DNA from: Blastocystis sp. Blastoise | Taxonomy: Eukaryota; Protista; Bigyra: Opalinata | Reading direction: 5' to 3' | DNA length: 64,000 nucleotides | Assembly (NCBI GenBank): GCA_039096225.1 | Contig: JBBPEB010000002.1 | Location: 620,001 to 684,000 of the forward strand | Shown here: positions 1 through 19,875 of the stretch, in pieces | Layout of the letters: each line of letters opens with the position of its first letter | Numbering within the stretch: position 1 is the first letter of the stretch | Notes under the pieces: model-generated | Databases searched by the model: none | What the model was told of the DNA's origin: nothing | Seen by the model: only the letters and a program-made list of their open reading frames with translations | Position numbers and translations under genes: made by a program

Positions 1-689
1 CATATTGTTAAATCATCACTACCTTGTTTTAACATAAAGAATTGATGTGGATCATTCATTAATTCTTCATCTGTAAGAATTTCATTTAGATTCGATGGCA
101 TAATCTTTAATTTATCTGGTAAGAATCCAGGATCACGTTTTAAGATTTGACTATTAATAAAGAAATGAGATACTTGACTTAATATAGATTGATTGGTAAC
201 ATCTGTATGACTTTGAAGACATATAATAGCATTCTGTTTATAATGACGACCTTTAGATAATATAGATACAATCAATTGTTTGGTTTGTCTAGATAATGGA
301 TAGATATCATCCAATACAATAAAATTATGTTCTGGTAATTTATATGTATTGACTAATTCATCAACAGTCTTAATCTTTTTAAATTTATCATCTACAGAAT
401 CATACCATTTATAATCAATTCCAGCATGTTCACAAATATCTTGAAAGGATGTATAACATTCATTCTTATTGGATGCATCAGGACAAATTACTGTGACTTG
501 TTTATATTTATTTTTAAGATCCATAGAACATAAGAGATTCACAGTTAAGAAAGATTTACCTGAGAATGTTCTTGCAATAATCAATATAAATTTTGATTCA
601 TATGTTTTATGATGGGATTTTCCATATTTAAATTCTAAGACTCCACATCCTTTACGTGTTTCTTTTAATGGATTTATTTTATTCACCAT
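1..689 (-). CDS. A32/FtsK-HerA family DNA packaging ATPase (3' end outside the window)
   Basis: Manual translation from ATG at 689: MVNKINPLKETRKGCGVL...ILIIARTFSGKS (Walker A)...FIVLDD (Walker B)...LSKGRHY (Arg finger)...IICLQS (sensor Gln). Open for 229 codons to the window edge; absent from the supplied ORF track. Confidence 0.93.
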   Translation of the reverse strand, partial: MVNKINPLKETRKGCGVLEFKYGKSHHKTYESKFILIIARTFSGKSFLTVNLLCSMDLKNKYKQVTVICPDASNKNECYTSFQDICEHAGIDYKWYDSVDDKFKKIKTVDELVNTYKLPEHNFIVLDDIYPLSRQTKQLIVSILSKGRHYKQNAIICLQSHTDVTNQSILSQVSHFFINSQILKRDPGFLPDKLKIMPSNLNEILTDEELMNDPHQFFMLKQGSDDLTI

Positions 690-757
690 TTTATATGATT
701 TTAATCAACAAAACAAAAAATAATTAATGATAAGTTAAAGATAAATAAATGATTTTA

Positions 758-1423
758 TTAAGATGCAGTAAAGTATATATAAAGATTTGTATTTGATAAA
801 TCAATTGGATTATTTAATTGATCATATACTTCCCATTGGATATCTGTATATTTACCATCAATACATGGAATAGATAAATCACTTAAAGCAAATGTATTAT
901 CAAATCCTTGTTTAGCATATAAAGGAATAGAAATCAAATCATTATCTTTATTAATAATATCACAATACACACGTAACATATAGATCTTATACCATGAAAT
1001 ATTATTAGATATATATTCATCACTGTAAGTAATTGGTGTATTAAAGTATTCATCATCTAATCCTAAATAATAAAAGAATTCTTTATTACTAAGACTTCTT
1101 CTGAATCCACTATATGTACCAAATGTTTTTGTTTCTTTATCATAATAGAATGCACTCGTTTGTCCAGATACAGATATTGTCATATCTTTACCAAGTTCAA
1201 TTAATTTCTCAAAGAATTCTTCCAATGAATAGTTACCAGCTGGAAATGTATGTGCTGTTGCATTATTTTCAGTTATTCTGAAAGATGGAATATTAATGAT
1301 ATCACTTGTATTCACTAATGTATTGATATGAGTAATATTTTTACCTACTAAATCCAAAGTATAATTGAATTGTTCATGACAGATTTGACTTGTAATTTTA
1401 CTTAGATGAGATATTGATGTCAT
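758..1423 (-). CDS. Minor capsid protein (penton, single jelly roll)
   Basis: FPAGNYSLEEF, LRVYCDII, SIPL and C-terminal IQWEVYDQLNNPIDLSN match Polinton/PLV penton motifs; lies between ATPase and MCP. Confidence 0.8.
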   Translation of the reverse strand: MTSISHLSKITSQICHEQFNYTLDLVGKNITHINTLVNTSDIINIPSFRITENNATAHTFPAGNYSLEEFFEKLIELGKDMTISVSGQTSAFYYDKETKTFGTYSGFRRSLSNKEFFYYLGLDDEYFNTPITYSDEYISNNISWYKIYMLRVYCDIINKDNDLISIPLYAKQGFDNTFALSDLSIPCIDGKYTDIQWEVYDQLNNPIDLSNTNLYIYFTAS

Positions 1424-1513: not shown

Positions 1514-2737
1514 TTAATTGGTTGCACCATCTCTAACAAATTTAACAAATATAAAATGAGCATATAAAGTATAAGTACCACTAGTAATATTTGCACCATT
1601 ATATTCAGTTAATAAGGAGATATTAACTTCACAACCACTACGAGTATTGACATCAACAACACTTGAAATAGGGAATATATAAATAGGTTGTTCATACCAC
1701 TTTTCACCATTTAAAGGAGATTGAGGATGACTATTACATCTCCAAGTATTATAAAGCATAGCATTAGGAATAATTTGTGATGGATTCGTTGTTTTATATG
1801 TAGTAGGGAAATCCGTCTTTGGTAAGATATTTTGACCACCAATTTGGAATTGACACATCTTCAATAATTCAGTCTTAATAGGAATCATACTCTTCTCTTG
1901 AGTTGTAAAATATAACATACAGTAATCAGGTACGAAAACAACACTTCTATTGGATAAGAATTGTTGTGGAGTTGGTTTACCTGCTGTTGTGAATGTTTCT
2001 GAATAAACAGGTGTAGTAAATGCAGATATCTGACAATTATTAGGAATACATTTAATCAAAGCACGTGGATCATTACCAAAATTAATATCATAAATTTGTT
2101 GAAGATGAATATAAACACGATCAAAAGTTAATGCAGTGATTTTAGTCGTACCTGTAAATAGATTCTTTAAATAATTTGTAACGAATTGCATCTTCAAAGA
2201 TTTTACTTTAATAGCACAATCAAATGTACCAAGACCAGTAATAAGAGATAAAGGAATAATAACTTGAGCTTTTTCTTTCATTTCCATTCCAGCAATACTG
2301 CTTGAGGTTGTATTATATAAGCATTCTGTCATACTATACATAGATTTATCAATTTCATCTTTACTTAATTCTTTAATAGTAACAAATTTTCTTGCTTTAC
2401 TGGATTCAATAGAAGATTCAGAATAATTAATAAGAATATCTTGACCCGTAGGAGATACAAACGTAAGATCTGTAGTAATTTTATCAATAATACTATAGAT
2501 ATTAGAATGTTGTACAACAGAACTAGTTGTTGCTGCATTTGTTGTAATATTGAAATTCAGTTCTAAGAATGAATTACTGAAATCAATATAAGGGCTATCC
2601 ACTGAATTATGTAAGAATTCAAATGGATAAGGTTGATTTAATAAATCTTGACTTGTAGAAACTAGAATAGGAATTTGTACAGGTTTAATAGTTTGATTTG
2701 CCTTTGAAGGTAAGAATTGTCTTGGGAATCCTTCCAT
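1514..2737 (-). CDS. Major capsid protein paralog 1 (double jelly roll)
   Basis: 407 aa, beta-rich; N-terminal YIDFSNSFLELNFNI and IIPLSLI motifs typical of Polinton/PLV MCPs; gene context. Confidence 0.78.
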   Translation of the reverse strand: MEGFPRQFLPSKANQTIKPVQIPILVSTSQDLLNQPYPFEFLHNSVDSPYIDFSNSFLELNFNITTNAATTSSVVQHSNIYSIIDKITTDLTFVSPTGQDILINYSESSIESSKARKFVTIKELSKDEIDKSMYSMTECLYNTTSSSIAGMEMKEKAQVIIPLSLITGLGTFDCAIKVKSLKMQFVTNYLKNLFTGTTKITALTFDRVYIHLQQIYDINFGNDPRALIKCIPNNCQISAFTTPVYSETFTTAGKPTPQQFLSNRSVVFVPDYCMLYFTTQEKSMIPIKTELLKMCQFQIGGQNILPKTDFPTTYKTTNPSQIIPNAMLYNTWRCNSHPQSPLNGEKWYEQPIYIFPISSVVDVNTRSGCEVNISLLTEYNGANITSGTYTLYAHFIFVKFVRDGATN

Positions 2738-2912
2738 GTTAGTAATTATTGTTTATGTATTTTTTAACAAAATAAAAATAACATAATAATAATATTTTAT
2801 AATTATTTATTAATTTAAATTTTTTATAACAAAACAAATGATTGTATTATAGAATAGAATAGAATTAATTAAACAAGTTAACGTTAAGAATAGTAAGTAA
2901 GAAATATTAAAT

Positions 2913-4385
2913 TTAAATATCACGTACACTACGTACAGCAATCATATGTAAGGTATAAGGATGCTTCTCATTTAGTTCAGTATTAATATGTTTATAAATA
3001 CCAGCATGAGATGCTACACTATAAGAAGCACCAGTATCAGGTGTCCATATTTTAGTAGTTTCATTATATGTACATGTATATCCATCAGGAACAGTAGATG
3101 AATCAGCATGACCATACTCAATATCATGGACATCTAGATTACAATCAAAATTCATTTCTATACCACTATCTGATTGGATATTCATTAATGCTTTAGTTGG
3201 AATAATATAAATAGGATGTTTAATCCATTCATCATATTTAAGAATAGTTTCAGGATTTGAATTATCAGCCCATAAACAATATAGTTTTTTATTAGGACAA
3301 GATAAACTAGCAGTTTCTTCATTATTGAAGACATGACCTTTAGTAGTAAGATTATGATAATACATTTGAGTAGGGAATTCAGTTTGAGGGAACATTTGAA
3401 CATCACCAATCAAACAACTTTGATATTTAGGCCATACAGATGGACTAGCTACATTACTAATAGTTGTTGAACTATAACCATTTGTAAACCAGTATAATAT
3501 ATATTCAGGTATAAATGGTAAAGCTCTATTGATATTGAATTGATCACTAGTTATTCTTGTATTTTGATAATCGACTTGAATACATGCAGGTATAGTTTTA
3601 TATAATTCATTCGTTTGGAATTGAATATCTTTATAAGTCATTAAATTCATAGTAGCTGATTCCAATTCAAATGTCTTAAACCATTTTTCATCAGTTAGAT
3701 GTAACCATTGTGTTGATAATTTAGCACCACCATTCTTGAAATAAATACTCATATTATTATCAATTAAAGATTCAATTGTACTCGTTCTAAATAGCATATT
3801 GAAATGTTTAGTTAATATTAATGAATCTCCATCAACACCTAAACCACTAATGAGATATAAAGGAATAGCAATATGAATAGATTCATTTGGATGTGCACGT
3901 ATATAACGAATAGAATTCAATTCATAAGTATCTGCAGATAAATCTTCACCATACATAGATTTTTCTAAATCATTCTTACTGATATCTTTTAATAAAATCA
4001 TCTTACGACCACGTGAAGCATGTGTACAGTTTTCTTCATATTTCAAAGCACGATCAGATCCATCAGGTAATGTATAAGCCATTTCAACATCAGTGGAATC
4101 AATAATAGAATAAATATTTGCTTTTTGAACTAATTGATCCAAGAAATATTGACATAATTGATCATAAGTGAAACTAACAGAAGTACCTGTTTCATCTAAA
4201 TAAACAGAAACTGGTCCTTTTTTATCTGTAACAGTTGCTTTGACAGTAAGATCCAAATAGGATTGATTGAAATTGATATAAGTATTATCCACATTAGTCC
4301 AATGATATTGAAAGATATAAGGACTTGATAGAATATCAGTATCACTTTGAATAGGAATATTATCTTTAATTCTTAAGATTCTCAT
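2913..4385 (-). CDS. Major capsid protein paralog 2 (double jelly roll)
   Basis: 490 aa, colinear with 1514..2737: YINFNQSYLDL/YIDFSNSFLEL, NIYSIID in both, KSMY in both, IPLYLISGLG/IPLSLITGLG, FIPEY/FVPDY, PQTEFPT/PKTDFPT, PIYIIP/PIYIFP. Confidence 0.75.
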   Translation of the reverse strand: MRILRIKDNIPIQSDTDILSSPYIFQYHWTNVDNTYINFNQSYLDLTVKATVTDKKGPVSVYLDETGTSVSFTYDQLCQYFLDQLVQKANIYSIIDSTDVEMAYTLPDGSDRALKYEENCTHASRGRKMILLKDISKNDLEKSMYGEDLSADTYELNSIRYIRAHPNESIHIAIPLYLISGLGVDGDSLILTKHFNMLFRTSTIESLIDNNMSIYFKNGGAKLSTQWLHLTDEKWFKTFELESATMNLMTYKDIQFQTNELYKTIPACIQVDYQNTRITSDQFNINRALPFIPEYILYWFTNGYSSTTISNVASPSVWPKYQSCLIGDVQMFPQTEFPTQMYYHNLTTKGHVFNNEETASLSCPNKKLYCLWADNSNPETILKYDEWIKHPIYIIPTKALMNIQSDSGIEMNFDCNLDVHDIEYGHADSSTVPDGYTCTYNETTKIWTPDTGASYSVASHAGIYKHINTELNEKHPYTLHMIAVRSVRDI

Positions 4386-4478
4386 ATTTCTTTTTATTTT
4401 AAATAAATATTAATAAATAAATAAAATTAAATAATTTTTATAAATTAATATAAATTATTATTTTATAAATTAGAAAAT

Positions 4479-6914: not shown

Positions 6915-6983
6915 ATATTTTAATTCATTTCATTTAAATTAAAAAATGTTTTGTTATATTATTCATTTAAAAATTATTAAAAA

Positions 6984-7406
6984 ATGGAGCCTAAATCTGT
7001 ATCTGAATCCTTACATTCTTTATCAAGTACAAGTTCAACAAGTTCAGATAGTTCAACAACAACCACATTATCCGAAGAAGAAATAGAAAAGAAAAATACT
7101 TTATTAGAATTTATTATAAAAGCTATAAAATGTTTATTTGAGAAATCAACTGAATTCTTTCAATTAATTGTTAAAAATATAGATATTCATTGTAATTGTT
7201 GTAATCCACAAACAAAGAAAGTCTATTATAAGACAATGAAAATACAACAAACTATTATAGAAGAAGAAGTCAAACATATATCTGAAGTCTTGAATGAATT
7301 AGAAGAAATTGATTCGAATCAAAATGAATCAATACAAGAATTAGCTGTTCAATTAATGAAATTAAATATAAGTGTTGATTCTATTGTTCAATCTCTTCAT
7401 TTATAA
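6984..7406 (+). CDS. Hypothetical viral protein (Ser/Thr-rich N-terminus, predicted coiled coil)
   Basis: 140 aa ORF with AAAATG start context and downstream TTGTTTTGTT motif like neighbouring genes. Confidence 0.7.
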   Translation: MEPKSVSESLHSLSSTSSTSSDSSTTTTLSEEEIEKKNTLLEFIIKAIKCLFEKSTEFFQLIVKNIDIHCNCCNPQTKKVYYKTMKIQQTIIEEEVKHISEVLNELEEIDSNQNESIQELAVQLMKLNISVDSIVQSLHL

Positions 7407-7473
7407 TTCTATGAAATGTTATAAAATATTAATAATAAATTTGTTTTGTTTATAAATAATTTAATTTTTAATA

Positions 7474-9318
7474 ATGCAATCAACAGGTTATTCAGATAAA
7501 GATTGTGAAGAATTCTTTACAAATTGTATAGATCAATTATTACATTGGAAGAAAATACAATTATCAACAAGTATAAATTGGAAGAAATGGATAAAGACAA
7601 TATGTAAGAAATTTCGTAATGAAGAACGAATTCAAATAGATGATATGGAAGAACCATTCTTTTGTGTAGAAGTGTTAACAGATCCATTTCAATTTCAAAA
7701 TGTTATGCAACATACACAAACAGAAGCTCCTGGACAACAAGGTGGATTATCCAATACTACTGTAGCTAATTATATGCAAATGATTACTTATATAATGAAG
7801 AATATATCTATTTGTACAGATGATGAAGATATCATTAATTATAAAGCATTTACTCCACAAAATATAAAGAAATGGGAACATTTATGGGGTTCTTTACAAA
7901 TTGATGCTACTTATTCAAGACATTATGAAATCACTCAGAAAATTATTAATTGTGAAGCTGATTGGGGAGAAATCATTAATATCACCAAAAAGAATTATTT
8001 AGAAAATCCTAATGATTTATATTATGTGAATAGTTATTTATTAGTTTTAACTTATGATACATTATGTGCTCGTAATGATTATAATGATTGTGTAATCTAT
8101 ACTCGTGGTCAACAAATTCCTTTATCGTTAAGAAGAACAACCAATTATATTGATTTAAATACTTTGACTATTCATGTGAATGATACAAAGAATCGATTTG
8201 AAATTGGTAAGAATGAATATCCTACTTATCAATATTTATCAGAAGAATATTTGAATGTCTTAGCTAGATCCTTACGTTTATTTCCAAGACATTATTTATT
8301 TGTTACTGAGAATGGTGGTAAAGTACGTGATTTGAAATTTGGTGATGAATATATAAAACCTCATTTAGGATGGATTTATAAAACACAACAGAATAATTCT
8401 TTAATTAATGGTTGTGATATTATAAGACATTTATTTGCTCAATATTATTATAGATTATCAAGAGAAGCACAATTCCAACATAATGATTCAGAACACGAAT
8501 CTAAAGGTGTAGAACTCTTTGAAAACTCTATTATGAAGATGTTACATAGTCAATCAACACATATGGAAAATTATATATCTCCTTATTTATCTTCTCATTC
8601 AACTAAATTGCAAGATTTAGATAATAAAACAAGAACATTTCATATTGATATGAATAATATTACTTATACAAGAGAAATTAATCAATTGAATAAATTATTA
8701 TTTTTATGTAAACGATTTAATGATCGTATAGAACAATATGATGAAGATTATGAAGATGTATTTGGTAAAGAGAATTTCAATATGAAATCAGAATCCATAT
8801 TAGGTAGTCTAGAACAATATTCATCAGATAATGATACTATAATGATTACATTAAGATATTATAAAGATCTATTAAAGCATAAGTATCCAGATAAAAACGA
8901 TTTAGAAAATGAATTACCTGTAGGATGTTCATTAGAATCTGAAGAAGTTCCAGAGAATTCTAGAGATCGTTATAATCGTTTTATACGTAATAAACAATTA
9001 TTACCTGATCATTTACATAATAATACAACAGATTCAGAATTAACGAATACTCAAGCATCTCTTATGCAACAAAATACTCAAGATGAAAACTCTACACCTA
9101 TAGTTATGAATAATTCAGATACTTATGCATTACGTAGTCTTTCTACTATGCCTCCTTTAGAACCTATTCATCGTGGTCATGGTTTATTGAAAAACATAAA
9201 GGTAATGCATTCTTTAAAGTCAAAGTCCCTAAAAAACATTTTCATGGAATTCAATTTAAATTTTATTAATTTTTTAAACAAAACAACTTTTTATAATAAA
9301 AAAAATATTATTATTTAA
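7474..9318 (+). CDS. Tyrosine recombinase 1 (PLV/virophage type) with long extensions
   Basis: Catalytic series ARNDY (R), NYI, DTKN (K), YLF, DIIRH (R), MLHS (H), ENY (Y); same motif order as 18048..18983. Confidence 0.72.
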   Translation: MQSTGYSDKDCEEFFTNCIDQLLHWKKIQLSTSINWKKWIKTICKKFRNEERIQIDDMEEPFFCVEVLTDPFQFQNVMQHTQTEAPGQQGGLSNTTVANYMQMITYIMKNISICTDDEDIINYKAFTPQNIKKWEHLWGSLQIDATYSRHYEITQKIINCEADWGEIINITKKNYLENPNDLYYVNSYLLVLTYDTLCARNDYNDCVIYTRGQQIPLSLRRTTNYIDLNTLTIHVNDTKNRFEIGKNEYPTYQYLSEEYLNVLARSLRLFPRHYLFVTENGGKVRDLKFGDEYIKPHLGWIYKTQQNNSLINGCDIIRHLFAQYYYRLSREAQFQHNDSEHESKGVELFENSIMKMLHSQSTHMENYISPYLSSHSTKLQDLDNKTRTFHIDMNNITYTREINQLNKLLFLCKRFNDRIEQYDEDYEDVFGKENFNMKSESILGSLEQYSSDNDTIMITLRYYKDLLKHKYPDKNDLENELPVGCSLESEEVPENSRDRYNRFIRNKQLLPDHLHNNTTDSELTNTQASLMQQNTQDENSTPIVMNNSDTYALRSLSTMPPLEPIHRGHGLLKNIKVMHSLKSKSLKNIFMEFNLNFINFLNKTTFYNKKNIII

Positions 9319-12317
9319 TTTGGTATAGCATATAAAGTATTATCTATTAAAATTCGTTTTGTTGATGACGTATTATGATATTGATCTTCACTATAAACAA
9401 TTTCTTCTTTTTTAGATAAACAATTGGATAAACAGAATAAATCTGTATCCACACATTCATTATAAGTATTATCAATCATTAAACCACAAATACCAATAGC
9501 ATTCCCCCCCTTATAGAAATTTGAAGTATGTTTTCTATGAATATTCACAATATCTATAGAATTAAATGTATCTTTACTACTTAAACAACCAAATAAAGCA
9601 TTTGTAAATTTATCTAAATCCTTCTTAATCGTAAATTGATTATTATTATTCACTTTCTTATAACTATTAAAAATATCTTCAATAGTAACTACATTCAAAT
9701 AATAAGGATCTATAGTAATATGGTTATCAACAAAAGATTTCAAATCATATCCTTCTGTACTACGATCAAAGAATCGTTTCTTACATTCACTTATATGATA
9801 TTCATTATCTAATTCATGCATATCTAATTGCATACTAGAATAGAAATAATTACTTACTAGATAACTAAAGATAATTGAACGATTCTGATAGAATTTATCG
9901 GATAGAGTATAATCCATTTCATAATGATTTGGTTTCAATCTCTTTTCTACTGTCTGTTTACGTTTAGGTAAATTATGATCTACATAATCTTCATATAAAT
10001 TAGCATTACCAGGAGGGAAATAACGACAACATGATGGTAAGAAACAGACTCTTCTTTCAATAGGACCAGCATTCACAGCAGTAGGTTGGATATTACTTGT
10101 CATAAATAAAGTACCCGTGAAATGAACTTTTGTAAATATATTACTGAATAATTTACGGGCACTAGCACCTTCTTTCTTTTCTGCTATTTCTTTAAAGACT
10201 TTAGAAGAGAATGGATTAAATGTTTTCTTTCTACCAGTAACATCTTCTTCTATTAATTCATTCATATAATACATTGTTTTATTAGACATATCTACAATCT
10301 TAGGAGCTATAGATGTTTCTTCTAAATTATCTGGATTTACTATAATACATTGATTACTACCTACAATACGAGATATTAAATCAGTTGTTATTGTTTTACC
10401 ATTACTACCTGTACTACCATATAATATATAAGAAACTGTTTTCTGAGTATTGACATAGAAAGCAGTGGTTAAGATACGTAACATAATACTTTCATATTTC
10501 TTATCGAATTCACAATATCTTGCAATATGTTGTTCAAATAATTGGATAATATCTTTCTGTTCATTATTAATATTCCAACTTACATTAAATTCAGTATCAA
10601 TTAATAAATCTTCAAACACCATATCTTCTTTATGATATGGTTGGATATAATATTGTCTAGGATCTTCTTCTGTAGATTCTTTTGGATATAAATAACCAAG
10701 TTGTGTATAGATAACACGTTCTTTATGAACCATATAAGTATCTAAATATTCTTTATAAGATTTACCATAAGTCTTCAAATAACGATTCAACCATTCTTTA
10801 TAATGATATTCATTAGTAACAGAAGCAGACATTATTTTATCAACAATTTTTTGATGCTGTTCATTCTCTTTGGAATATAATCTTGATAATTTGAATTTCT
10901 CTACAATCGATTTCATAAATGTAGTTATTTTGGTTTCAAAGAAATTAATATCATAATTATTCTTACAACGTCTTAAGATATTATATTCATCAAATGTATA
11001 TAAGATAAAATTATCTTTATCTAATATAATAGATACAATTTCATTAAATTCTAATAATTGAAATAACATAACTAATGTTTGTGAATCTACAAGATTAAAG
11101 GATTGAATACATTCTAAAATAGACATAAATATGAAATCATTATCATCATCTTTATTAAATAATTTATTATCCATTAATATCTTCAAAATATAATTATTCG
11201 ATAAATGAGTAGGATCAACTTGTATATGATTCCATGTAGATTCAATTACATCATCACTTCGATCATGACCATAACGTAATGAATAATTTTTAAATAATTC
11301 TAATCCTCTTGTTGTATTACAAATCTGTTTTGCTGCACAACATAATTTATACCAAGTATTATGGGATTCAAAATAATTCATATCTTCAATAGAACCAATC
11401 AATAATAAATATCGTTCTAATAAAGCTTCTTTAGATGCTGTAGTATCCAATATAGTATCTGTAGAAATCAACATAGGAATATCTTTAATATCTTGTATAG
11501 AACATAATATAGTACGTGAACAATTATTTAATCTTGCATAATAACGTTTATAACGTGAATATTGTTTTAATTTATAAAAAGTAATAGGATTAATAATATC
11601 ACTTATAATATCATCTTCATTCTTATAATTCAATAATGTTTTGAAATAATAATGTTCATCGATTTCATCATCTATTTTCTTCCATGTTTTATTGGTATAT
11701 TCTTCATATAATTTATAAGTAGATGGAGAATTATCTTTACTACAACCAAGAAACATACAACCATTATTCTTTCTTGGTTTACCAATAACATTATAATCAA
11801 TGAATTCTTTTATATCTAAATTATTCATTTTACATAAATCAACCAATTTTGTATTCAGAATCATACTATTATATAAGAAAAATAAATAATCACCATTTAC
11901 AAACCAATTTGTATATATATGAATTCCCCATGAATAATGTATTTCATTATGAACTGTCTTCTTATTCACTTCTTTCTTTGTATACAGAAGCGAAATAAAT
12001 TCTTGATTATAATAATGAATACAATGATTACACATTTCTTCTATAAATTCATGAATAAAAGAATCTGTTAGAAAAGAAAAATCATTTGATATTTGGTGAT
12101 AATCTAAATCAAACCATAATCTTCTATAATTAGTTGATGTATTACAAGGAGTACAATCAATATAATGTAATAATTCTTTTGGATTTTGATAATTAGTAAA
12201 TAGACTTTTATAAAATGGTAATGGATTTGGTATAATAATTTCACTATGATTATCTTTTGAATTATCATGATTAAAGGAACCAAAAGTATAAACAAAATGA
12301 ATTTGTGAATTTTCCAT
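9315..12317 (-). CDS. AEP primase - PriCT - superfamily 3 (D5-like) helicase fusion
   Basis: LWFDLD (DxD), WGIHIY, FIDYNV primase motifs; HNTWYKLCCAAK...FKNYS PriCT-2-like; GSTGSNGKT Walker A, YMNE Walker B, FMTSN motif C, IERR Arg finger. Confidence 0.9.
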   Translation of the reverse strand: MENSQIHFVYTFGSFNHDNSKDNHSEIIIPNPLPFYKSLFTNYQNPKELLHYIDCTPCNTSTNYRRLWFDLDYHQISNDFSFLTDSFIHEFIEEMCNHCIHYYNQEFISLLYTKKEVNKKTVHNEIHYSWGIHIYTNWFVNGDYLFFLYNSMILNTKLVDLCKMNNLDIKEFIDYNVIGKPRKNNGCMFLGCSKDNSPSTYKLYEEYTNKTWKKIDDEIDEHYYFKTLLNYKNEDDIISDIINPITFYKLKQYSRYKRYYARLNNCSRTILCSIQDIKDIPMLISTDTILDTTASKEALLERYLLLIGSIEDMNYFESHNTWYKLCCAAKQICNTTRGLELFKNYSLRYGHDRSDDVIESTWNHIQVDPTHLSNNYILKILMDNKLFNKDDDNDFIFMSILECIQSFNLVDSQTLVMLFQLLEFNEIVSIILDKDNFILYTFDEYNILRRCKNNYDINFFETKITTFMKSIVEKFKLSRLYSKENEQHQKIVDKIMSASVTNEYHYKEWLNRYLKTYGKSYKEYLDTYMVHKERVIYTQLGYLYPKESTEEDPRQYYIQPYHKEDMVFEDLLIDTEFNVSWNINNEQKDIIQLFEQHIARYCEFDKKYESIMLRILTTAFYVNTQKTVSYILYGSTGSNGKTITTDLISRIVGSNQCIIVNPDNLEETSIAPKIVDMSNKTMYYMNELIEEDVTGRKKTFNPFSSKVFKEIAEKKEGASARKLFSNIFTKVHFTGTLFMTSNIQPTAVNAGPIERRVCFLPSCCRYFPPGNANLYEDYVDHNLPKRKQTVEKRLKPNHYEMDYTLSDKFYQNRSIIFSYLVSNYFYSSMQLDMHELDNEYHISECKKRFFDRSTEGYDLKSFVDNHITIDPYYLNVVTIEDIFNSYKKVNNNNQFTIKKDLDKFTNALFGCLSSKDTFNSIDIVNIHRKHTSNFYKGGNAIGICGLMIDNTYNECVDTDLFCLSNCLSKKEEIVYSEDQYHNTSSTKRILIDNTLYAIPN

Positions 12318-12403
12318 GATTATTTGACTTATAAATAATGAAAATAATTATAATACAACATTTAAAACAAATAATATATTAAAGATTCTAGAAGTCAGTT
12401 TTG

Positions 12404-12451
12404 GAAGCTTCTAGAACATTCTAGAACATTCAAGAACATTCTAGAACATTC
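12404..12451. promoter_or_regulatory. Heat-shock-element-like array (10 alternating nGAAn units) upstream of primase-helicase
   Basis: GAAgcTTCtaGAAcaTTCtaGAAcaTTCaaGAAcaTTCtaGAAcaTTC. Confidence 0.7.
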
Positions 12452-12485
12452 TATAATAGTAAATATTACTTTATATTTTTAAATG

Positions 12486-12533
12486 TTCTAGAACCTTCTA
12501 GAACCTTCTAGAACCTTCTAGAACCTTCTAGAA
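12486..12533. promoter_or_regulatory. Second heat-shock-element-like array (10 units) upstream of primase-helicase
   Basis: TTCtaGAAcc repeated five times, last spacer ca. Confidence 0.7.
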
Positions 12534-12643
12534 CATCCTTTTTATACTTTAGTGTTTTAAATGTATATATAATAAACAAAACAATTTTCAATGATTTTTT
12601 ACAAGTTTATAAGTAAAACTAGAAAAATAAACAAGAAAAATAA

Positions 12644-13267
12644 TTAAATTTCAATTGGTTCTTGACTATTAATATATGTACATGAATGAGGCCATCCATT
12701 CTTATCATATAAAATACCATCCCAGAAATACATTTGTTTTGAAGGATCTCTTTTAATCTTGTTAATACTCTTAGCATGAACAACTTCATAAGAATAAACT
12801 TTACCTTTTTCATCATAAAGAAATCCATCTTCCATATGGAATTTCATAATATCAAAATCATCATCTTTAGAATTCGAATGTTCTTTAGAATCTTCAGAAC
12901 ATAAAATAGTAGTTCTATCACTTTCTAAAAGATCTTCAGTATTGATAATATCTTGAATATCTTGTTCTTCATTAAGTTGTTGAGTATAAATATCAGCAGC
13001 GAATTCTTCATAATCTTCAAGACCTTTAATAACCGCGTTTATACGTTTTAAAGCTGATCTATAGTTTTCGACTTCGAAAGAAGCAAGACGTTCTTTAGAT
13101 TTTGCAATACCCAATAGATTCTTTTCTCTATTCAATTGAGACTGATGTAAATCAATATCACGAAGAACATTCTTATGAACTTCAACAGCCTTCTTAGAAT
13201 TCTTAAGAAGTTCCATACGAACAGTTTGAAGACATTTACGGGAATCAGCAGAAAGATTAAATTGCAT
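12644..13267 (-). CDS. Hypothetical viral protein with N-terminal coiled coil
   Basis: ORF track starts at TTG 13312; first ATG is 13267 (MQFNLSAD). Charged helical-looking N-half. Confidence 0.7.
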   Translation of the reverse strand: MQFNLSADSRKCLQTVRMELLKNSKKAVEVHKNVLRDIDLHQSQLNREKNLLGIAKSKERLASFEVENYRSALKRINAVIKGLEDYEEFAADIYTQQLNEEQDIQDIINTEDLLESDRTTILCSEDSKEHSNSKDDDFDIMKFHMEDGFLYDEKGKVYSYEVVHAKSINKIKRDPSKQMYFWDGILYDKNGWPHSCTYINSQEPIEI

Positions 13268-13378
13268 TATAATCGCGAATATCGTTACAGAGAGAAAATT
13301 TGTATTTATCAAAATGAAATAAATAATACATTTAAATGGAATATTAAATATTCTAGGAGACAGTGTAGAATCTCTATG

Positions 13379-13396
13379 GAATGTTCTAGAAGGTTC
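13379..13396. promoter_or_regulatory. HSE-like array (4 units) in a divergent promoter that also has three inverted CCAAT boxes
   Basis: GAAtgTTCtaGAAggTTC; ATTGG near 13402, 13475 and 13545. Confidence 0.55.
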
Positions 13397-13665
13397 ATTT
13401 GATTGGCTAATTTTGTCGACTTAGCATTTTTTATTTGTGTTTCAATGACGAGTATAGTTGGCATCTGTAATCTGATTGGATAAAAAAATTAGTAAAACAC
13501 AATTAGACGATGACGACGATGTGTCATACGAAATAAGTTATTTTATTGGCTTATTTTCCAGCTGGAAGCAATAGGCTTTTGTTAGCAACTGAAATGAAGA
13601 ACTGTACACTAAAAATAGTATATTTAATATATTGTATAAAAATACTTTTGAAGGTTTAAATAATC

Positions 13666-14193
13666 ATGGAAATTTCTGATAGTCTTTCTGCCAGTTTATC
13701 CCCTTTCGGTCAAGCCATGATATCCCCCTTGTTGAATCCATTTGAAAATAGTGTTTCTGCAAATCCTATGGCTTTACCCAATGATAATGATTTCTGTTTT
13801 AATTCGCGTGACGAAATCATGTTTGAAGATCCACCTCAAGATATTCATCCAATCAATGATGTTTACGTATCTAAAAATCCAGATAGATATCATTCGGTTA
13901 ACAATCAACCAATACAATTTCAAGATCAAGTAAATACAAATCCTAATAAGCAAGCATTATTATTTACAAATGAGGAGTTAACAAATATATCCAGTCAATT
14001 CGAATCTTTATTTCAAACTATTGAAACAGCTGATAATATATTAAATGGTATTTATTGTACTGTTGATCATTTAAAAACAAAGATTGAAAGTCAGAAACAA
14101 GATTTGAAACAGATTCATGATGATTCTAAAGAAATTGTTTCATTATTATCCGAATATTCTATTCCTTCTATGTCTGAAATATTTGATCATTAA
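13666..14193 (+). CDS. Hypothetical viral protein (acidic/Pro-rich N-terminus, C-terminal coiled coil)
   Basis: 175 aa ORF; heptad-like C-terminal region; TTGTTTTGTT about 25 nt after the stop. Confidence 0.7.
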   Translation: MEISDSLSASLSPFGQAMISPLLNPFENSVSANPMALPNDNDFCFNSRDEIMFEDPPQDIHPINDVYVSKNPDRYHSVNNQPIQFQDQVNTNPNKQALLFTNEELTNISSQFESLFQTIETADNILNGIYCTVDHLKTKIESQKQDLKQIHDDSKEIVSLLSEYSIPSMSEIFDH

Positions 14194-14284
14194 TTATTTT
14201 TATTTAATTAATTATTTTGTTTTGTTTATTTTTTTTTTAATTAATTACACAAAGTTTAAATGGAGAATAGAATAGTTTCAAATA

Positions 14285-14391
14285 GAATTCTTGAATGGTC
14301 TAATGGATCTATTAAAGAAATATGTAACCACAGTATCATGGTTCGATTCCGTTAAAATGTTTCCATTAGATTATTCAAGTGTTCTTTTTTT
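14285..14391 (+). ncRNA. Candidate Pol III small RNA, VA-RNA/vault-RNA-like architecture
   Basis: A-box TGGTCTAATGG 14296-14306, B-box GGTTCGATTCC 14340-14350, T7 at 14385-14391; 14290-14307 pairs with 14362-14379 (18 bp, two G-U). Confidence 0.65.
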
Positions 14392-14437
14392 CTAGAACCT
14401 TCTCGAACCTTCTAGAACCTTCTCGAACATTCTGGAA
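14390..14437. promoter_or_regulatory. HSE-like array (10 units) upstream of the SSB-like gene
   Basis: TTCtaGAAccTTCtcGAAccTTCtaGAAccTTCtcGAAcaTTCtgGAA. Confidence 0.7.
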
Positions 14438-14514
14438 AATTGATTCATTTGAAAAGAATATCGTAATATATTAGTATTAAAATACTTATATTTTTACTAA
14501 ATACTTAACTAAAA

Positions 14515-15108
14515 ATGTCTTCAACTGAATTTAAGAAACCTACTATTCTTGATACTTCTAACTTTAATTTACAATGGGATGACACCAAAGAAAATGCTGT
14601 TCTTTTAAATAATAATCATCGTGTATGTATTTCTACTGATGCTACACCATGTTTATTTGGTTATATTGTTACACGTGATAAATGGACTTTATTAACAATT
14701 GAAGATGATAATCAAGTATTCTTAACTGCTTATAAAGAACTTTATCGTAAATTATGTGAATTATGTCCTGATGGTGATATTGTTAATTTTGTACGTATGG
14801 ATAATGGTAAATATAAGATTACAATTAAAGTACCTATTAATGCATCGAAGAATGTTACTATTGATATCACTGATAAAAGAGATAAGAAGATTAATATCGG
14901 TAAAGATCCTAAGTTAACTTACGAAGAAATACGTGAAAAGTATATTCCACCAAATACGTTATGTAAAGTATTATTTACAATACATGGTATTCATCGTTAT
15001 AATAACAAGTATTATATTGGTTTATATGCTCGTTCTATTAAAGTCATCGATAAATCTACGAAGAATACTAATAGTAATGATACTATTATTGATTTAACTA
15101 ATTTATAA
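14515..15108 (+). CDS. Probable OB-fold single-stranded DNA-binding protein (viral, DUF2738/gp2.5-like)
   Basis: C-terminal pattern IPPNTLCKVLFTIHGIHRYNNKYYIGLYARSIKVI resembles viral SSB OB-fold strands; shares the upstream array with the primase-helicase. Confidence 0.55.
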   Translation: MSSTEFKKPTILDTSNFNLQWDDTKENAVLLNNNHRVCISTDATPCLFGYIVTRDKWTLLTIEDDNQVFLTAYKELYRKLCELCPDGDIVNFVRMDNGKYKITIKVPINASKNVTIDITDKRDKKINIGKDPKLTYEEIREKYIPPNTLCKVLFTIHGIHRYNNKYYIGLYARSIKVIDKSTKNTNSNDTIIDLTNL

Positions 15109-15183
15109 ATTTTTAATGTTAAATTTATTTTTTATTAATATATTTGTTTTGTTTATAAATAATTTTATAATTGAAATAAAAAA

Positions 15184-16911
15184 ATGCAAAGTTGTATATT
15201 AGGAATGCCAAGTCCTGGTACTTTTGGTATGAATTTAATTTCAACTGGAAAAGAATATAGGCGATATAATACACAACCATTACATAAAATGGATCAATAT
15301 AATCCAATATTTCATGAAATAGGTCCAAATTCATCTATGCCTGTGTCTACTTTAGAAAGTAAAGAAATACATGATGGTAAAGAAGATGATTATGTAGATC
15401 GTTCTAAAACATTTGGTAAAGATGCTGTTCCACAAGGAAATGGTGCATTAATTCGTGCTAGAGCAGCAGGTAAAGGAATAATGAAAGCAGCTGGTCCAGA
15501 AGAAGATAAAATAGATGGTGAAGATCGTCAATATAAAGTATTAAATCCATGTAAACCAAGACGTAAATCTGGTAGAGGAATTATTCCAAATAAATCAGAA
15601 ATCAATAAATTAGAGAATAATCAAGGTTCTGGTATTGGTGATGCAATTAAAAATAAAGTAAAAGATATGTATCAACGAAATGTATTAGATATAAGAGATG
15701 CTATTGTAGATAAAAAAGCTAATAGAAAAGCTCGTGATGCATTAGCTATTTTAGCTCAATATGTTGGTGACGGTCATCATGATCTTGATGATGAATTCAA
15801 AAGATTCTATGAACATAAAATTAAACGTGGTGGAAAGATTCCTATATCAGTTGCTTCAGCAATTATGAATGCAATTAAAAATAAGAAAATGATTAAGAAT
15901 CCAAAATTAAGAAGAATGTTAAGACCTTCAATTATACCAAAATATATAGATTTAGATTCAGCTCAAAGTGGTGATGGTATATTAAGAGTAAAAAGAGGTG
16001 GTGGATTCTGGAGTGGAGTTATGAACTATGCACCAGCTCTATTAGGTGTAGTTGATAAAGGTATGGATTCTTTTGCTAAAGGTAGAAAAGCTTATTATGA
16101 TACACATTTGGCACAACAATCAAGTGAATTAAATGATATGGAATTTGAAATGGAAAAATTAAAACGTCAACAAGCATTAAATGAAATGAAAAAGCAAATA
16201 GGTAATGGTATAGTAATGGGAACAATTAATGATGGTTACGATACAGTTGAACGACAATCAGAATTATTAGATCAAGAAGTGCAACCATTAAGAGATTTGC
16301 ACAGTATGAAACAACAACTTAGAAAGAATCTTCCTGTTCGTCAACCACCTCCTCCAGCAGCACCCATTCAACCACAACCAGAAATTGAACCTGAATTGAA
16401 TGTTGATACATTTGATATACCTCAAAATGATACACCAAGACATCCACAAACTCAACAACCTCCTCAACCTTATAAACCCATGTCTCGTGATGAACAAAGT
16501 TATTATTATAAGATTTATGGTTTCCCTCAAAATGATAAAGAGAAAGTCGATAGAAAATGGAAAGAAGATGAAAGGGATAAACGAATAGCTGCAAGAAGAG
16601 CTAAACGTAGAGGTTATGGTGGTCGAGTTAAATTAAGTAAAGCAGAATTCTTAGAACGAATGAGAAGAGGAAAAGAAGCTAAAAAGAAAAGAGGTGGTGA
16701 TTTGAATCCATTAGTATCATTTTATACAGATTTTATAATACCTGCAGGAGTGGCACGAAAAAAACGTAAAATACAAGAGGCTGATTTAAAACAATTACAA
16801 ATTATAAAACAGAAAAGAGATAATAATGAAACATTAAATACAGGTGACGAATTGTTCTGGAAAAAAAAGAAGTATATGTTATCAAAAAACTCAGGGGAGG
16901 GGATCTGGTAA
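15184..16911 (+). CDS. Basic core protein precursor with repeated adenain-type G-x-G / GG cleavage motifs
   Basis: 575 aa, Lys/Arg-rich; QGNGAL, AGKGIM, SGRGII, QGSGIG, RGGKI, SGDGIL, RGGGFW, IGNGIV, YGGRV, RGGDL, SGEGIW; adjacent to the protease. Confidence 0.7.
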   Translation: MQSCILGMPSPGTFGMNLISTGKEYRRYNTQPLHKMDQYNPIFHEIGPNSSMPVSTLESKEIHDGKEDDYVDRSKTFGKDAVPQGNGALIRARAAGKGIMKAAGPEEDKIDGEDRQYKVLNPCKPRRKSGRGIIPNKSEINKLENNQGSGIGDAIKNKVKDMYQRNVLDIRDAIVDKKANRKARDALAILAQYVGDGHHDLDDEFKRFYEHKIKRGGKIPISVASAIMNAIKNKKMIKNPKLRRMLRPSIIPKYIDLDSAQSGDGILRVKRGGGFWSGVMNYAPALLGVVDKGMDSFAKGRKAYYDTHLAQQSSELNDMEFEMEKLKRQQALNEMKKQIGNGIVMGTINDGYDTVERQSELLDQEVQPLRDLHSMKQQLRKNLPVRQPPPPAAPIQPQPEIEPELNVDTFDIPQNDTPRHPQTQQPPQPYKPMSRDEQSYYYKIYGFPQNDKEKVDRKWKEDERDKRIAARRAKRRGYGGRVKLSKAEFLERMRRGKEAKKKRGGDLNPLVSFYTDFIIPAGVARKKRKIQEADLKQLQIIKQKRDNNETLNTGDELFWKKKKYMLSKNSGEGIW

Positions 16912-17003
16912 AGAGTAAAGATGAAAAACTTATTCAAAATTCAATGAATTGCGATAATCCTATTATATCTGATAAAACTCGTCATGTTACTCCTAGATCC
17001 CCT
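16884..17003 (+). other. Candidate -1 programmed ribosomal frameshift signal linking core precursor to protease
   Basis: In-frame A_AAA_AAC (16884-16890), 7-nt spacer, AGGGGATCTGG (16898-16908) pairing with CTAGATCCCCT (16993-17003); the -1 frame is the protease frame and is open from 16848. Confidence 0.7.
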
Positions 17004-17477
17004 GATAATTTTAAACAAACTCTATCTCAATATTGTAATATACCCAATTCTTTAATATCTCAATTATATAATTATGCTTATTTAAATAAACCTACTTCTT
17101 CTGTTGCTTGTGATCGTGCTGAAAATGTTATGAAACAATTAAATAAAACGAATTCTCAATCTTATAATTATTATAATAGTTATGATGATTTTGAACAAAA
17201 TATAGATCAAGATCAAACTAAATTTAATATGATCTTTCATGAAAGTCCTAGTGATCCTTATAATGGTCATTTTGAAGCTGTTATTTATAATGGTAATAAA
17301 AACATAGAACACTATTCATCATTAGGAAATGAACCTACTTTTTCAAAATCATTTATTCAAAATCATAATATTCAATATAATCCTATTCAACACCAAAAAA
17401 CTACAAGTAATGCAAATGGTTGCTTTTATTATTCTTTACTTTATTTACTTTCTAATGGAAATCTTATGCCTTGTTAA
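16944..17477 (+). CDS. Adenain/Ulp1-like (clan CE) maturation cysteine protease; frame open from 16848
   Basis: NGHFEAV (His), EHYSSLG (position of the usual FDSxG motif), IQHQ (oxyanion Gln), NGCFYYSLLYL (Cys). Confidence 0.78.
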   Translation: MNCDNPIISDKTRHVTPRSPDNFKQTLSQYCNIPNSLISQLYNYAYLNKPTSSVACDRAENVMKQLNKTNSQSYNYYNSYDDFEQNIDQDQTKFNMIFHESPSDPYNGHFEAVIYNGNKNIEHYSSLGNEPTFSKSFIQNHNIQYNPIQHQKTTSNANGCFYYSLLYLLSNGNLMPC

Positions 17478-17481
17478 AACA

Positions 17482-17504
17482 TTCTAGAACATTCTAGAAC
17501 ATTC
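17482..17504. promoter_or_regulatory. HSE-like array (5 units) upstream of ORF 17600
   Basis: TTCtaGAAcaTTCtaGAAcaTTC. Confidence 0.55.
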
Positions 17505-17599
17505 ATTTTGAACTGGCTCTATTTGTAGAATCTTTAATTTATTATATTAGTGTTTTATATAATTAATTTGTTTTGTTTAATCATTGGTTAATTTAAATA

Positions 17600-17974
17600 A
17601 TGAACAAGAAATATCTTAGTTATTCTTATTTTTGTCGTGTGATGAAGAATCTAAAAGAAGAAGGAATTAAATCCAAAAAGAATGAAATAGCAAATCTATT
17701 AGAACAATTTTTAAATAATAATAACAACAAGAATCTTAGTGATTTGCAATTGAGTTACTGTAGAAATATGTTACTTTATATAGATGATCCTGTGATTCAT
17801 CAACGTCTTGAAATGCTATTGGATAAACAATATATGAAGAATGAGAATCAATATCAAGAGGATAAGAATCTTATTCAACCCAATAATATGTTTATGCCAA
17901 CTATGAAAAGTAATCAACAACAAAATCAATACCAAAATAATAATAATACTCTATCTTTCTTACCTTTTAATTAA
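17600..17974 (+). CDS. Hypothetical viral protein
   Basis: 124 aa ORF with Asn/Gln-rich tail, preceded by an HSE-like array. Confidence 0.6.
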   Translation: MNKKYLSYSYFCRVMKNLKEEGIKSKKNEIANLLEQFLNNNNNKNLSDLQLSYCRNMLLYIDDPVIHQRLEMLLDKQYMKNENQYQEDKNLIQPNNMFMPTMKSNQQQNQYQNNNNTLSFLPFN

Positions 17975-18047
17975 TTTTTATATCCTTTTATTACTAGTTG
18001 TTTAGTTATATTCAAATTTAAAGCAAAACAAGCATGAAAACACAAAA

Positions 18048-18983
18048 TTATTCAATTAATTTTTTAAATAAATTATTATTTTCTAAAGATACATAAGAAT
18101 TAATATGTGTATAATCATTATGACATAAAGCAGAAGCAGAATTTTCTATATCTTGGAATGTATTGGTTGTAGTTGTAGCATATAATTTTCTTAATGCATT
18201 AATGGTTAATTTTGGATGGATTTGTTTTAAATGCTTATTCACAAACCAATCAAATGCTTTAGTAGTAAATCCAGTTCGTACAGAAGATTCAAATATAAAT
18301 TTACGATTTGGATTTCTTTTTAAGAGTAATTCTAGATCTTCAATCAATTCTTTTGGTGCATCTAATTGAATTGTAGAGTATTTACCAGCAGTTTTATAAT
18401 CATTTAATAGAATAGAACCAGTATGTTTCTCTTTATCATAAACAATATAATTCTTATGAATAGCTGGATCAATAGTATCTTCTGGTGATAGAATGAATAA
18501 TTGAGCATAATCAGCACGAGCAGGAGGAATATAGGAGTAAAAATCTAATATTAATCGTAATGGATTATAATTTTCTAATTTATCGTGATATTCATGTAAA
18601 TATGGAGTCGTAATACCATCTTTAATAAGATCTTGAATCAAAGTACGTTTCTTATTATCCAGATATTTTTCATACATTGAATTGATAATCACATAAAATT
18701 CACACCATTTATTCAAAATACCTTCTTTATTTAATGAAGAAACATTACGTATAATAAATAATATCAATTCACATAACGATTTCATGGGACTAATTTTGAT
18801 TTTACGTTCATTTACCATATAATCCATGAATGAATAAGGATTCTTTAAGAATTCTGAGAACTTTTTAAATGGTAATGGGAAAATATATAAATTGAAATAA
18901 TTGGTTAAACGTTTTTTCCAAATATCAGAATAATTTGAATTTTGTATAACCAAAAGATACTTGTCATAATTTGTATTTTTCAT
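18048..18983 (-). CDS. Tyrosine recombinase 2 (PLV/virophage type)
   Basis: PPARADY (R), NYIV, NDYKTAGKY (K), FIF, INALRK (R), ALCHN (H), INSY (Y). First ATG at 18983; the track uses TTG 18995. Confidence 0.85.
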   Translation of the reverse strand: MKNTNYDKYLLVIQNSNYSDIWKKRLTNYFNLYIFPLPFKKFSEFLKNPYSFMDYMVNERKIKISPMKSLCELILFIIRNVSSLNKEGILNKWCEFYVIINSMYEKYLDNKKRTLIQDLIKDGITTPYLHEYHDKLENYNPLRLILDFYSYIPPARADYAQLFILSPEDTIDPAIHKNYIVYDKEKHTGSILLNDYKTAGKYSTIQLDAPKELIEDLELLLKRNPNRKFIFESSVRTGFTTKAFDWFVNKHLKQIHPKLTINALRKLYATTTTNTFQDIENSASALCHNDYTHINSYVSLENNNLFKKLIE

Positions 18984-19071
18984 TGATTTTCTCAAGTAGA
19001 ATCTCTAAAACTTCTATTTTCAAAAGAATAATATATAAGAAAATCAAAATAAAATATCTAAAATTCTCGTG

Positions 19072-19119
19072 TTCTCGAATGTTCTAGAAGTTTCTAGAAT
19101 GTTCTAGAATGTTCTCGAA
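19072..19119. promoter_or_regulatory. HSE-like array (10 units) upstream of tyrosine recombinase 2
   Basis: TTCtcGAAtgTTCtaGAAgtTTCtaGAAtgTTCtaGAAtgTTCtcGAA. Confidence 0.7.
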
Positions 19120-19175
19120 AATTTATATTTTTCCATATCAGTCGCTCATGTTTCAAAAAGTCTCTCGTTATAATC

Positions 19176-19708
19176 GTGGTGGTGGGTACATCTTTTTACA
19201 AGACCACACCACCACCAGCTTTTCTTTCACCCACTATAAATACATACCTTGATCACTTTACTCTTTTTATATATTTTTTTTATGATTATCATGACTTTTT
19301 ATATTATTTATTGATCACTATACATACATTTTTATTTTTATATATTCCCGTGATTATTTTTATTATTTCTTTTTAGATAGAACCATCCATTTCATCTTTT
19401 CTCTATATAAAGGGAGGGTCGGGGTGTGTGTTTATTTAGCACATTCTGTGCTTCTTTTCGTATTTCTTTCTGTATTCCCGTGATTATTTTACTCACTTTA
19501 CCAACGATGGAGTCATTTTCCATGAATATTCCCTGTAAAGGGGAGGGTTGGACTGTGTATTTTATTTCTTTTATGATCACTATGAGTTTCTCCTTGATCA
19601 CTTTACGTTTCACGTTGGAATCGGAACACAAATAAATTAAAAATAAATAAACATGGGAAAAAATAAATACACACACACACTACCCTACACTCCCATGGTT
19701 ATTTTACT
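19176..19708. repeat. Repeat-rich putative terminal region of the PLV
   Basis: GTGGTGGTG/CACCACCAC hairpin (19176-19215); four TGATCACT; TATTCCCGTGATTATTTT and GGGGAGGGT each twice at ~129-bp spacing; (AC)n near 19670. Confidence 0.5.
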
Positions 19709-19721
19709 TCAGAAATGTTAT

Positions 19722-19841
19722 TAATTCTTCCGTCGAGAACAAAAAGGGGGGATGTCTTCCCCGCTTATGGCTGCGCGTGTCGCGCAGACTCTATGCGGGG
19801 TTTGCATACCCCCTTCTGCAGTTCGAAGAAAGGAAGAATTA
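19722..19841. other. 120-nt GC-rich nested imperfect hairpin
   Basis: TAATTCTTCC/GGAAGAATTA, GAAC/GTTC, AAGGGGG/CCCCCTT, CCCCGC/GCGGGG and apical CTGCGCG-tgt-CGCGCAG pair concentrically. Confidence 0.8.
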
Positions 19842-19875
19842 TTAAAGGCACGTAGGTCAAAAGGATAAATTCTCT

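Follow-up and report, generated by a model that had tools for sequence, protein, structure and literature searches.

Inverted arrays of the nGAAn pentamer are the binding site of trimers of the eukaryotic heat-shock factor (HSF), and the Arabidopsis retrotransposon ONSEN carries such heat-shock elements (HSEs) and is induced by heat. SOS induction of prophages works by cleavage of a repressor. Here, we describe a stretch of 64,000 nucleotides from Blastocystis sp. Blastoise (GenBank assembly GCA_039096225.1, contig JBBPEB010000002.1, positions 620,001 to 684,000 of the forward strand; hereafter the window), which holds what, judged by gene content and a modelled capsid protein, is an integrated Polinton-like virus (PLV), and in which six HSE-type arrays lie in front of five viral genes.

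Mutation of the HSE in the long terminal repeat (LTR) of a Ty3/Mdg4 element of Macrostomum lignano abolished its heat response (PMC12801592), and Caenorhabditis Helitrons carry HSEs that are bound by HSF-1 on heat shock and drive neighbouring host genes (PMC6927752). HSF1 sites are also found in the LTR of human immunodeficiency virus type 1 (HIV-1), in connection with reactivation from latency, and in the Qp promoter of Epstein-Barr virus (EBV), which serves the replication protein EBNA1 (PMC9157408). The gene set of PLVs comprises a double-jelly-roll major capsid protein (MCP), a packaging ATPase, a primase-helicase and a tyrosine recombinase (PMC10120064; bioRxiv 10.64898/2026.06.19.733378). 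Reactivation of endogenous virophages and of the Tetraselmis PLV needs a giant virus and, for mavirus, is independent of host stress (bioRxiv 10.1101/2025.10.09.676808); in corals, it was not possible to compare polintovirus expression between stressed and unstressed material (PMC11131425). A 'Blastocystis MELD virus 3996' has been named (bioRxiv 10.1101/2022.05.25.493380), so that viruses of this general type are already on record for Blastocystis, and the idea that the present element would be the first such virus in this host was rejected.

The locus resembles ONSEN and the M. lignano LTR elements in being a mobile element with canonical HSEs, which in those elements lie upstream of the transcription start; unlike them, with their one promoter and one to four short HSEs, it has arrays of up to 10 units at five genes of a capsid-encoding DNA virus. 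As in the Caenorhabditis Helitrons, the HSEs are inside a DNA mobile element, but here they face the element's own replication genes. The use of host HSF by a latent virus, which it would share with HIV-1 and EBV, is in this case a prediction from sequence; those viruses have single sites among many inputs, whereas the element of the window has a multi-gene set of long perfect arrays. In its modelled MCP fold, its packaging-ATPase-like ORF, primase-helicase and predicted tyrosine recombinase, and its many copies in a protist genome it is like PLVs and endogenous virophages; unlike them, it has two MCP paralogues and two predicted recombinases. Moreover, known reactivations of PLVs and endogenous virophages are triggered by a giant virus (bioRxiv 10.1101/2025.10.09.676808), whereas for the window element we propose host HSF. 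HSE capture as a strategy is already known, and long multi-gene arrays on a PLV would be a variant of it; our literature search found no report of HSF control or HSE capture in PLVs.

Six arrays of heat-shock-element type

A scan of the full window for runs of perfectly alternating GAA and TTC units detected six arrays of at least three units, with starts at 12404, 12486, 13379, 14390, 17482 and 19072, all in non-coding DNA of the PLV:

12404..12451, no strand: HSE-type array of 10 units, proximal to the primase-helicase gene, 86 nt to its ATG
12486..12533, no strand: HSE-type array of 10 units, a perfect 10-mer tandem; distal array of the primase-helicase gene, ending 168 nt before the ATG
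13379..13396, no strand: HSE-type array of 4 units, 111 nt to a 207-aa open reading frame (ORF) and 269 nt to a divergent 175-aa ORF
14390..14437, no strand: HSE-type array of 10 units, 77 nt to the ATG of an ORF resembling a single-stranded DNA-binding protein (SSB)
17482..17504, no strand: HSE-type array of 5 units, 95 nt to a 124-aa ORF and directly past the stop of a protease-like ORF
19072..19119, no strand: HSE-type array of 10 units, 88 nt to the ATG of recombinase 2

The arrays, of 4 to 10 perfect units each, consist mostly of TTCTAGAA repeated with a 10-bp period, and an AT-rich spacer of 34 nt separates those at 12404 and 12486. An HSE has been defined as contiguous inverted nGAAn units, at least three in number (PMC9157408), and all six arrays have this composition. 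Between TTC and GAA the spacer is TA 16 times, TC four times, and AA and TG once each; between GAA and TTC it is CA or CC (seven times each), TG (four) and GC, GG or GT (once each). In these respects an initial annotation of this DNA was borne out: it had listed the six starts, the four arrays (12404, 12486, 14390 and 19072) with exactly ten units and the nine types of spacer dinucleotide that we count, and had found no array before the ATPase, penton, MCP, core and recombinase 1 genes. Our scan of the window likewise revealed none before the ATPase, the penton candidate, the MCPs, an 811-aa ORF, the core-like gene or recombinase 1.

A chance origin of the arrays is excluded, as six of at least four units were observed in the first 19.2 kb and 0.007-0.027 are expected from Markov simulations (orders 2-4, 150 runs each). 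Two-unit sites in the same 19.2 kb are near background (30 observed vs about 26 expected), and the ~43 kb of repeat-rich host DNA from 21.1 to 64 kb contains no array of at least three units.

Placement of the arrays and promoter anatomy

The genes behind the arrays, together with the divergent 175-aa ORF, are the following:

9315..12317, minus strand: primase-helicase, 1000 aa; PHROG 1156 DNA primase (E 2.4e-9, residues 574-749); relatives at 39-45%
12644..13267, minus strand: 207-aa ORF with no assigned function; array upstream
13666..14193, plus strand: 175-aa ORF, acidic in its N-terminal half and coiled-coil-like in its C-terminal half; preceded by CCAAT-type words, but by no array in the nearest 250 nt
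14515..15108, plus strand: SSB-like ORF, 197 aa, a lead only, from Atlas feature matches; array upstream
17600..17974, plus strand: 124-aa ORF with a helical N-terminal part and an N/Q-rich tail; array upstream
18048..18983, minus strand: predicted tyrosine recombinase 2, 311 aa, with catalytic-type columns; array upstream

From the end of the proximal array to the ATG there are 86 nt for the primase-helicase, 111 for the 207-aa ORF, 77 for the SSB-like ORF, 95 for the 124-aa ORF and 88 for recombinase 2. That all five fall at 70-115 nt has a joint chance of 7e-5 under random placement in non-coding DNA, for an interval picked post hoc. The upstream position given by the initial annotation (about 80-220 bp) thus holds, with a tighter range of 77-111 nt for the five proximal arrays and 168 nt for the distal primase array. 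The two small target ORFs are those of 124 and 207 aa; the array at 13379, which lies between divergent ORFs, is assigned to the 207-aa rather than the 175-aa ORF because a second motif sits there. This motif, AGAAT-n3/4-TAAT on the sense strand, is found between array and ATG, at -60 to -87, in four of the five array promoters:

12378..12389, minus strand: second motif, candidate core-promoter element
13343..13354, minus strand: second motif, candidate core-promoter element
14455..14467, plus strand: second motif, candidate core-promoter element
17527..17538, plus strand: second motif, candidate core-promoter element

At recombinase 2 the motif is matched only approximately, and it is missing from all ten other genes; the pattern was derived from these same promoters and has one further match in the rest of the window. 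Short gaps of 2-12% GC precede the structural genes. Placement and second motif suggest that the arrays behave as positioned promoter elements of five genes.

At the other end of the genes, positions 1-19200 contain 10 copies of TGTTTTGTT, all of them in sense orientation and 24-91 nt past a stop, so covering 10 of 14 genes. It differs by one base from TGTTTGTT, the motif used at the polyadenylation sites of Blastocystis ST1, ST4 and ST7 (PMC5608401; PMC6395660), of which it may be a variant. The TGTTTTGTT sites of the viral part span positions 707-17577; the word also occurs at 26972 and 28132, and it follows a recombinase gene (at 28205) that is part of a different element.

The same 16 nt, with a CCAAT box inside, are common to 13394-13409, in the divergent viral promoter region, and to 22169-22184, which belongs to a host repeat family with copies at about 22108, 36676 and 40265.

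Variation within the arrays

When each array was compared with its own 10-mer, all 12 internal differences fell in spacers, a count that is biased, since only runs with perfect triplets qualify as arrays. Once a flanking unit is included on each side, differences affect 27 of 110 spacer positions and 21 of 183 triplet positions (binomial P 0.006). Moreover, six of the 22 central dinucleotides in the window break TCTAGA yet keep TTC and GAA; in the flanks of 13 prokaryotic arrays, where the search pattern fixed the core centres but not the flanks, TCTAGA is kept without TTC..GAA 17 times and the reverse occurs 0 times.

The arrays at 12486 and 17482 are perfect tandems with no internal differences, and tandem duplication of a 10-mer probably gave rise to all six. 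The initial annotation had set the varying spacers against a slippage satellite. That argument was abandoned: two arrays of the window are perfect tandems, and varied spacers are also seen in a phage array (see below). Since these two arrays make slippage the likely origin, the case for a function rests on the position of the arrays and on where their units differ.

Host heat-shock factor as the candidate regulator

Proteins with the HSF DNA-binding domain (IPR000232) number two to three in each of eight Blastocystis genomes (PMC10690189, supplement file 7), which, at the level of the genus, bears out the expectation that the host has one. Blastocystis HSP70 rises at 41 °C (PMC4151958) and, in another stramenopile, Phytophthora infestans, the HSF PITG_04701 binds TTCTAGAA in electrophoretic mobility shift assays, more strongly with three units (PMC11267843). 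The initial reading of the arrays as a host-HSF switch therefore keeps the site match, the promoter-like placement, the triplet-sparing variation, the HSF proteins of the host genus and a stramenopile HSF that binds the repeated unit; by itself the motif is not diagnostic. We consider it somewhat probable that the arrays are host-HSF promoters which make the replication module stress-responsive.

According to this model, host HSF would bind the arrays in front of the five viral genes, and heat or protein-folding stress would raise transcription of the primase-helicase, the SSB-like gene, recombinase 2 and the two small genes. Transcription would be by host RNA polymerase II, as the TGTTTTGTT ends of the genes may indicate, and a ten-unit array could load about three HSF trimers, giving a steep response. 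The five-gene replication and recombination module would then act as an early phase. More speculatively, recombinase 2, whose role in excision is a guess, would excise the element, and a small ORF would switch on the AT-rich promoters of the structural genes. Arrays are missing from recombinase 1 and from every structural gene.

Several observations weigh against HSF control. A 7-unit TTCTAGAA pattern matched 63 metagenomic loci, none of which showed hsp70, hsp90 or ClpB peptide motifs (many loci are of 1-2 kb, and spliced genes would escape), and no heat-shock Pfam family was found in 89 and 70 chosen frames of these loci. By gene content, 10 of the 63 loci look bacterial; a GTDB scan gave three matches in two prokaryotic metagenome-assembled genomes (MAGs); and a phage contig carries, beside replication genes, a 10-unit array with varied spacers (L069:4006-4053). 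Perfect arrays thus occur also in bacterial contigs and in a phage, and the motif alone is no proof of HSF control. Most of the P. infestans HSFs tested bind ungapped sites (PMC11267843), and the specificity of Blastocystis HSF may differ; a single HSE was insufficient for induction in two of six flatworm LTR families (PMC12801592). Finally, the polyadenylation motif is not enriched in low-GC tortoise Blastocystis (PMC10690189), which weakens the argument for polymerase II and leaves TGTTTTGTT as a weak pointer.

As to the look-alikes themselves, six of the 63 loci carry retroelement, transposase or parvovirus-like genes; 15 have arrays of at least 10 units, and none has two arrays of at least eight units more than 500 nt apart. 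Eight perfect TTC-first units were found in only four stretches among 2.9 million IMG/VR contigs, namely three copies of one pure satellite in non-coding DNA and the phage. The phage array directly precedes an ORF of replication type and a DnaB-like ORF, both labelled by inspection. Intergenic TCTAGA-based 10-mer tandem repeats were seen in bacterial contigs L005, L024, L032, L048, L054, L057, L064, L067, L073 and L074, with two in a Prevotellaceae MAG; and a 7-unit array (L049:2928-2960) is at the upstream end of minus-strand frames, one of which encodes a parvovirus-type phospholipase A2 domain.

Alternative explanations of the arrays

HSF could bind the arrays as a basal or infection-triggered activator on incoming viral DNA, the integrated copies being silent and not stress-induced. 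The position of the arrays, the second motif and the sparing of the triplets fit this equally well, and budding yeast Hsf1 binds basally. The HSF inhibitor HSBP1 (IPR009643) has a count of 0 in eight of eight Blastocystis genomes (PMC10690189, supplement file 7), and HSFs also play a part in viral infection independently of heat (PMC9157408). We nevertheless hold this explanation to be unlikely: mobile elements with validated HSEs respond to heat from their chromosomal sites, and many copies at 96-98% identity imply activation from the genome or a route of reinfection. The arrays, being dyad-symmetric with a 10-bp period, might also bind a viral protein, a small ORF product or a recombinase, and serve as dispersed enhancers or origins on the model of the baculovirus homologous regions; the twin array with its AT-rich gap (12404-12533) would then be an origin beside the primase gene. 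Positions 12380-12545 can fold back on themselves (-28.1 kcal/mol, with no shuffle control), the HSF-less phage has a similar array next to its replication genes, and three small ORFs have no assigned function. The array sequence, however, equals a known HSF site, the constant spacing to the ATG and the presence of a second motif are what one would expect of promoters, the end region at 19120-19875 has different repeats that could be an origin, and the small ORFs matched no DNA-binding family in profile searches, so that we regard a viral ligand as quite improbable.

We give very little credence to two further explanations. One takes the arrays to be the promoter motif of a helper giant virus. 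Mavirus uses the late promoters of CroV, and TCTA, which each unit contains, is the core of that motif; the known reactivations of virophages and the Tetraselmis PLV need a giant virus, and the modelled capsid fold resembles the Sputnik and mavirus MCPs among others. The structural genes, however, are without arrays, six of 22 centres break TCTA, a six-unit array on one contig of a giant virus MAG is at convergent stops and not upstream, and no signal of gene flux between Blastocystis and egoviruses is reported in the excerpts of bioRxiv 10.1101/2024.03.23.586382. A helper may still be needed for late genes. The other would have the arrays be functionless palindromic minisatellites made by slippage, in line with the two perfect tandems and with the occurrence of such arrays as satellites and in bacteria; against it, they are confined to five upstream regions at a fixed distance, their differences spare the triplets, and none is present in 43 kb of repeat-rich host DNA.

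To return to HSF-driven promoters, a larger claim can be built on them, namely that HSF alone would activate the early module, recombinase 2 would excise the element, the primase-helicase would replicate it and particles would form without a helper giant virus, so that temperature swings in the gut, or proteotoxic stress, would control a whole family of Blastocystis viruses. We consider this larger claim doubtful. Such an induction would be a eukaryotic counterpart of the SOS response of prophages, in that the exit of an integrated virus would be set off by a stress regulator of its host, here by direct activation; the likeness is one of analogy only. What triggers the reactivation of an endogenous PLV, with or without a giant virus, is the question that the element addresses, and it names a candidate trigger that simple heating can test in a culturable protist with many recent copies. 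If the HSF reading is true, HSE capture would no longer be confined to single promoters of transposons but would embrace a coordinated set of viral genes. The arrays would also provide a candidate inducible promoter for Blastocystis, for which a transfection study found only one promoter that worked (PMC6395660).

Genes, copies and relatives of the element

The first 19,000 positions are packed with coding sequence and free of introns. The window has a GC content of 24%, and tortoise Blastocystis genomes have 21-23% GC (PMC10690189); the host is presumably a low-GC Blastocystis. The element is of at least 19 kb, its left end lies outside the window, and host-type repeats and mobile genes begin at 21.1 kb. 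In addition to the genes listed above, it comprises:

3..1423, minus strand: ORF resembling a packaging ATPase, truncated at the start of the window (PHROG terminase-type ATPase, E 2.7e-10), and a 221-aa penton candidate; no arrays
1514..2737 and 2913..4385, minus strand: two MCP paralogues of 407 and 490 aa with 31% identity; no arrays
7474..9318, plus strand: predicted tyrosine recombinase 1, from motif columns; no array
15184..16911, plus strand: core-like protein of 575 aa, basic and rich in GG motifs, labelled by resemblance only; no array
16944..17477, plus strand: protease-like ORF with a His/Gln/Cys motif order; no array upstream
19120..19875, no strand: probable end of the element, non-coding; contains three direct repeats of 20 nt, TGATCAC four times, GGGAGGGT twice and two GC-rich hairpins

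The model of the 407-aa MCP (predicted local distance difference test, pLDDT, 67) is a double jelly roll; Foldseek places the Sputnik MCP first (E 3.3e-12), and VIA the faustovirus MCP (Z 18.7, root-mean-square deviation 4.6, 322 aligned), with Sputnik sixth (Z 16.5). No Pfam match to a virophage-type MCP was obtained for the capsid proteins of the window, and the penton candidate matched no Pfam or PHROG family. The modelled double-jelly-roll MCP and the primase plus predicted tyrosine recombinase, the latter with weak profile support, are those by which a PLV is recognized. Recombinases 1 and 2 and a 43% relative have R-K-R-H-Y columns in common, an order which we take to be that of tyrosine recombinases; recombinase 2 gave a weak match to Pfam Phage_integrase (E 0.084), recombinase 1 matched no family in Pfam and PHROG profile searches, and pairwise BLAST between the two was not significant. 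The SSB-like ORF has Atlas feature matches (0.94-0.95) to Nucleocytoviricota clusters with DUF5871/DUF2738, the latter presumably an SSB family, at a level of recognition below the threshold of the tool, and its single-sequence fold was unusable (pLDDT 37). The motif order of the protease-like ORF is, we assume, that of adenain-type proteases; the ORF has no Pfam or PDB match, and PDB sequence searches with the recombinases, the primase and the protease returned nothing meaningful. Profile searches found no DNA-binding family in the small ORFs. The 175-aa ORF was considered as a mimic of HSBP1 or of the HSF coiled coil and dismissed, having no such Pfam match up to E 5 and no usable Atlas match. 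The region 19120-19875, putatively the end of the element, is a candidate origin or attachment region. Only 32 nt separate the core-like from the protease-like ORF (15184-17477); a G-rich run lies close to where they meet, no 3' motif intervenes, and the two may share a transcript.

The named members of the 90% clusters of the element's proteins are all hypothetical proteins of 'Blastocystis sp. Blastoise'. The primase cluster has 19 members and the 175-aa protein has 14 copies at 96-98% identity to that of the window, which points to a recent spread of the family; more distant families are present in the same source (MCP 51%, primase 39%). Relatives at 31-45% are on ENA/Logan contigs of up to ~27 kb, and scans of IMG/VR, JGI metagenomes and GTDB at the DNA level gave no related locus. 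The main text of PMC10690189 has nothing on viral elements or heat shock. Metagenomic relatives (clusters P0002, P0004, P0104 and P0053) recur on contigs of nearly equal length, ~8.1, 16.3, 23.7 and 27.4 kb; these contigs may represent unit genomes or result from breaks at internal repeats.

Other features of the window

Directly after the probable end of the element, at 19876-21039, is a 387-aa ORF that ends in a CCHC-like knuckle and may belong to another element; its exact sequence is absent from the protein collection searched. An intron-containing tyrosine recombinase gene at 28205-29346 (Pfam Phage_integrase, E 3.6e-4) is, we presume, Crypton-like. A Helitron occupies 51811-57319, where the open frames for Rep (868 aa) and for a PIF1 helicase (682 aa) abut, and a DDE_1 fragment is found at 62834. 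Two inverted arms, 32001-32184 and 44764-44944, are 95-99% complementary and ~12.6 kb apart, and dispersed repeats with a period of 244/489 nt extend over 22100-23600, 36700-38700 and 40300-42300.

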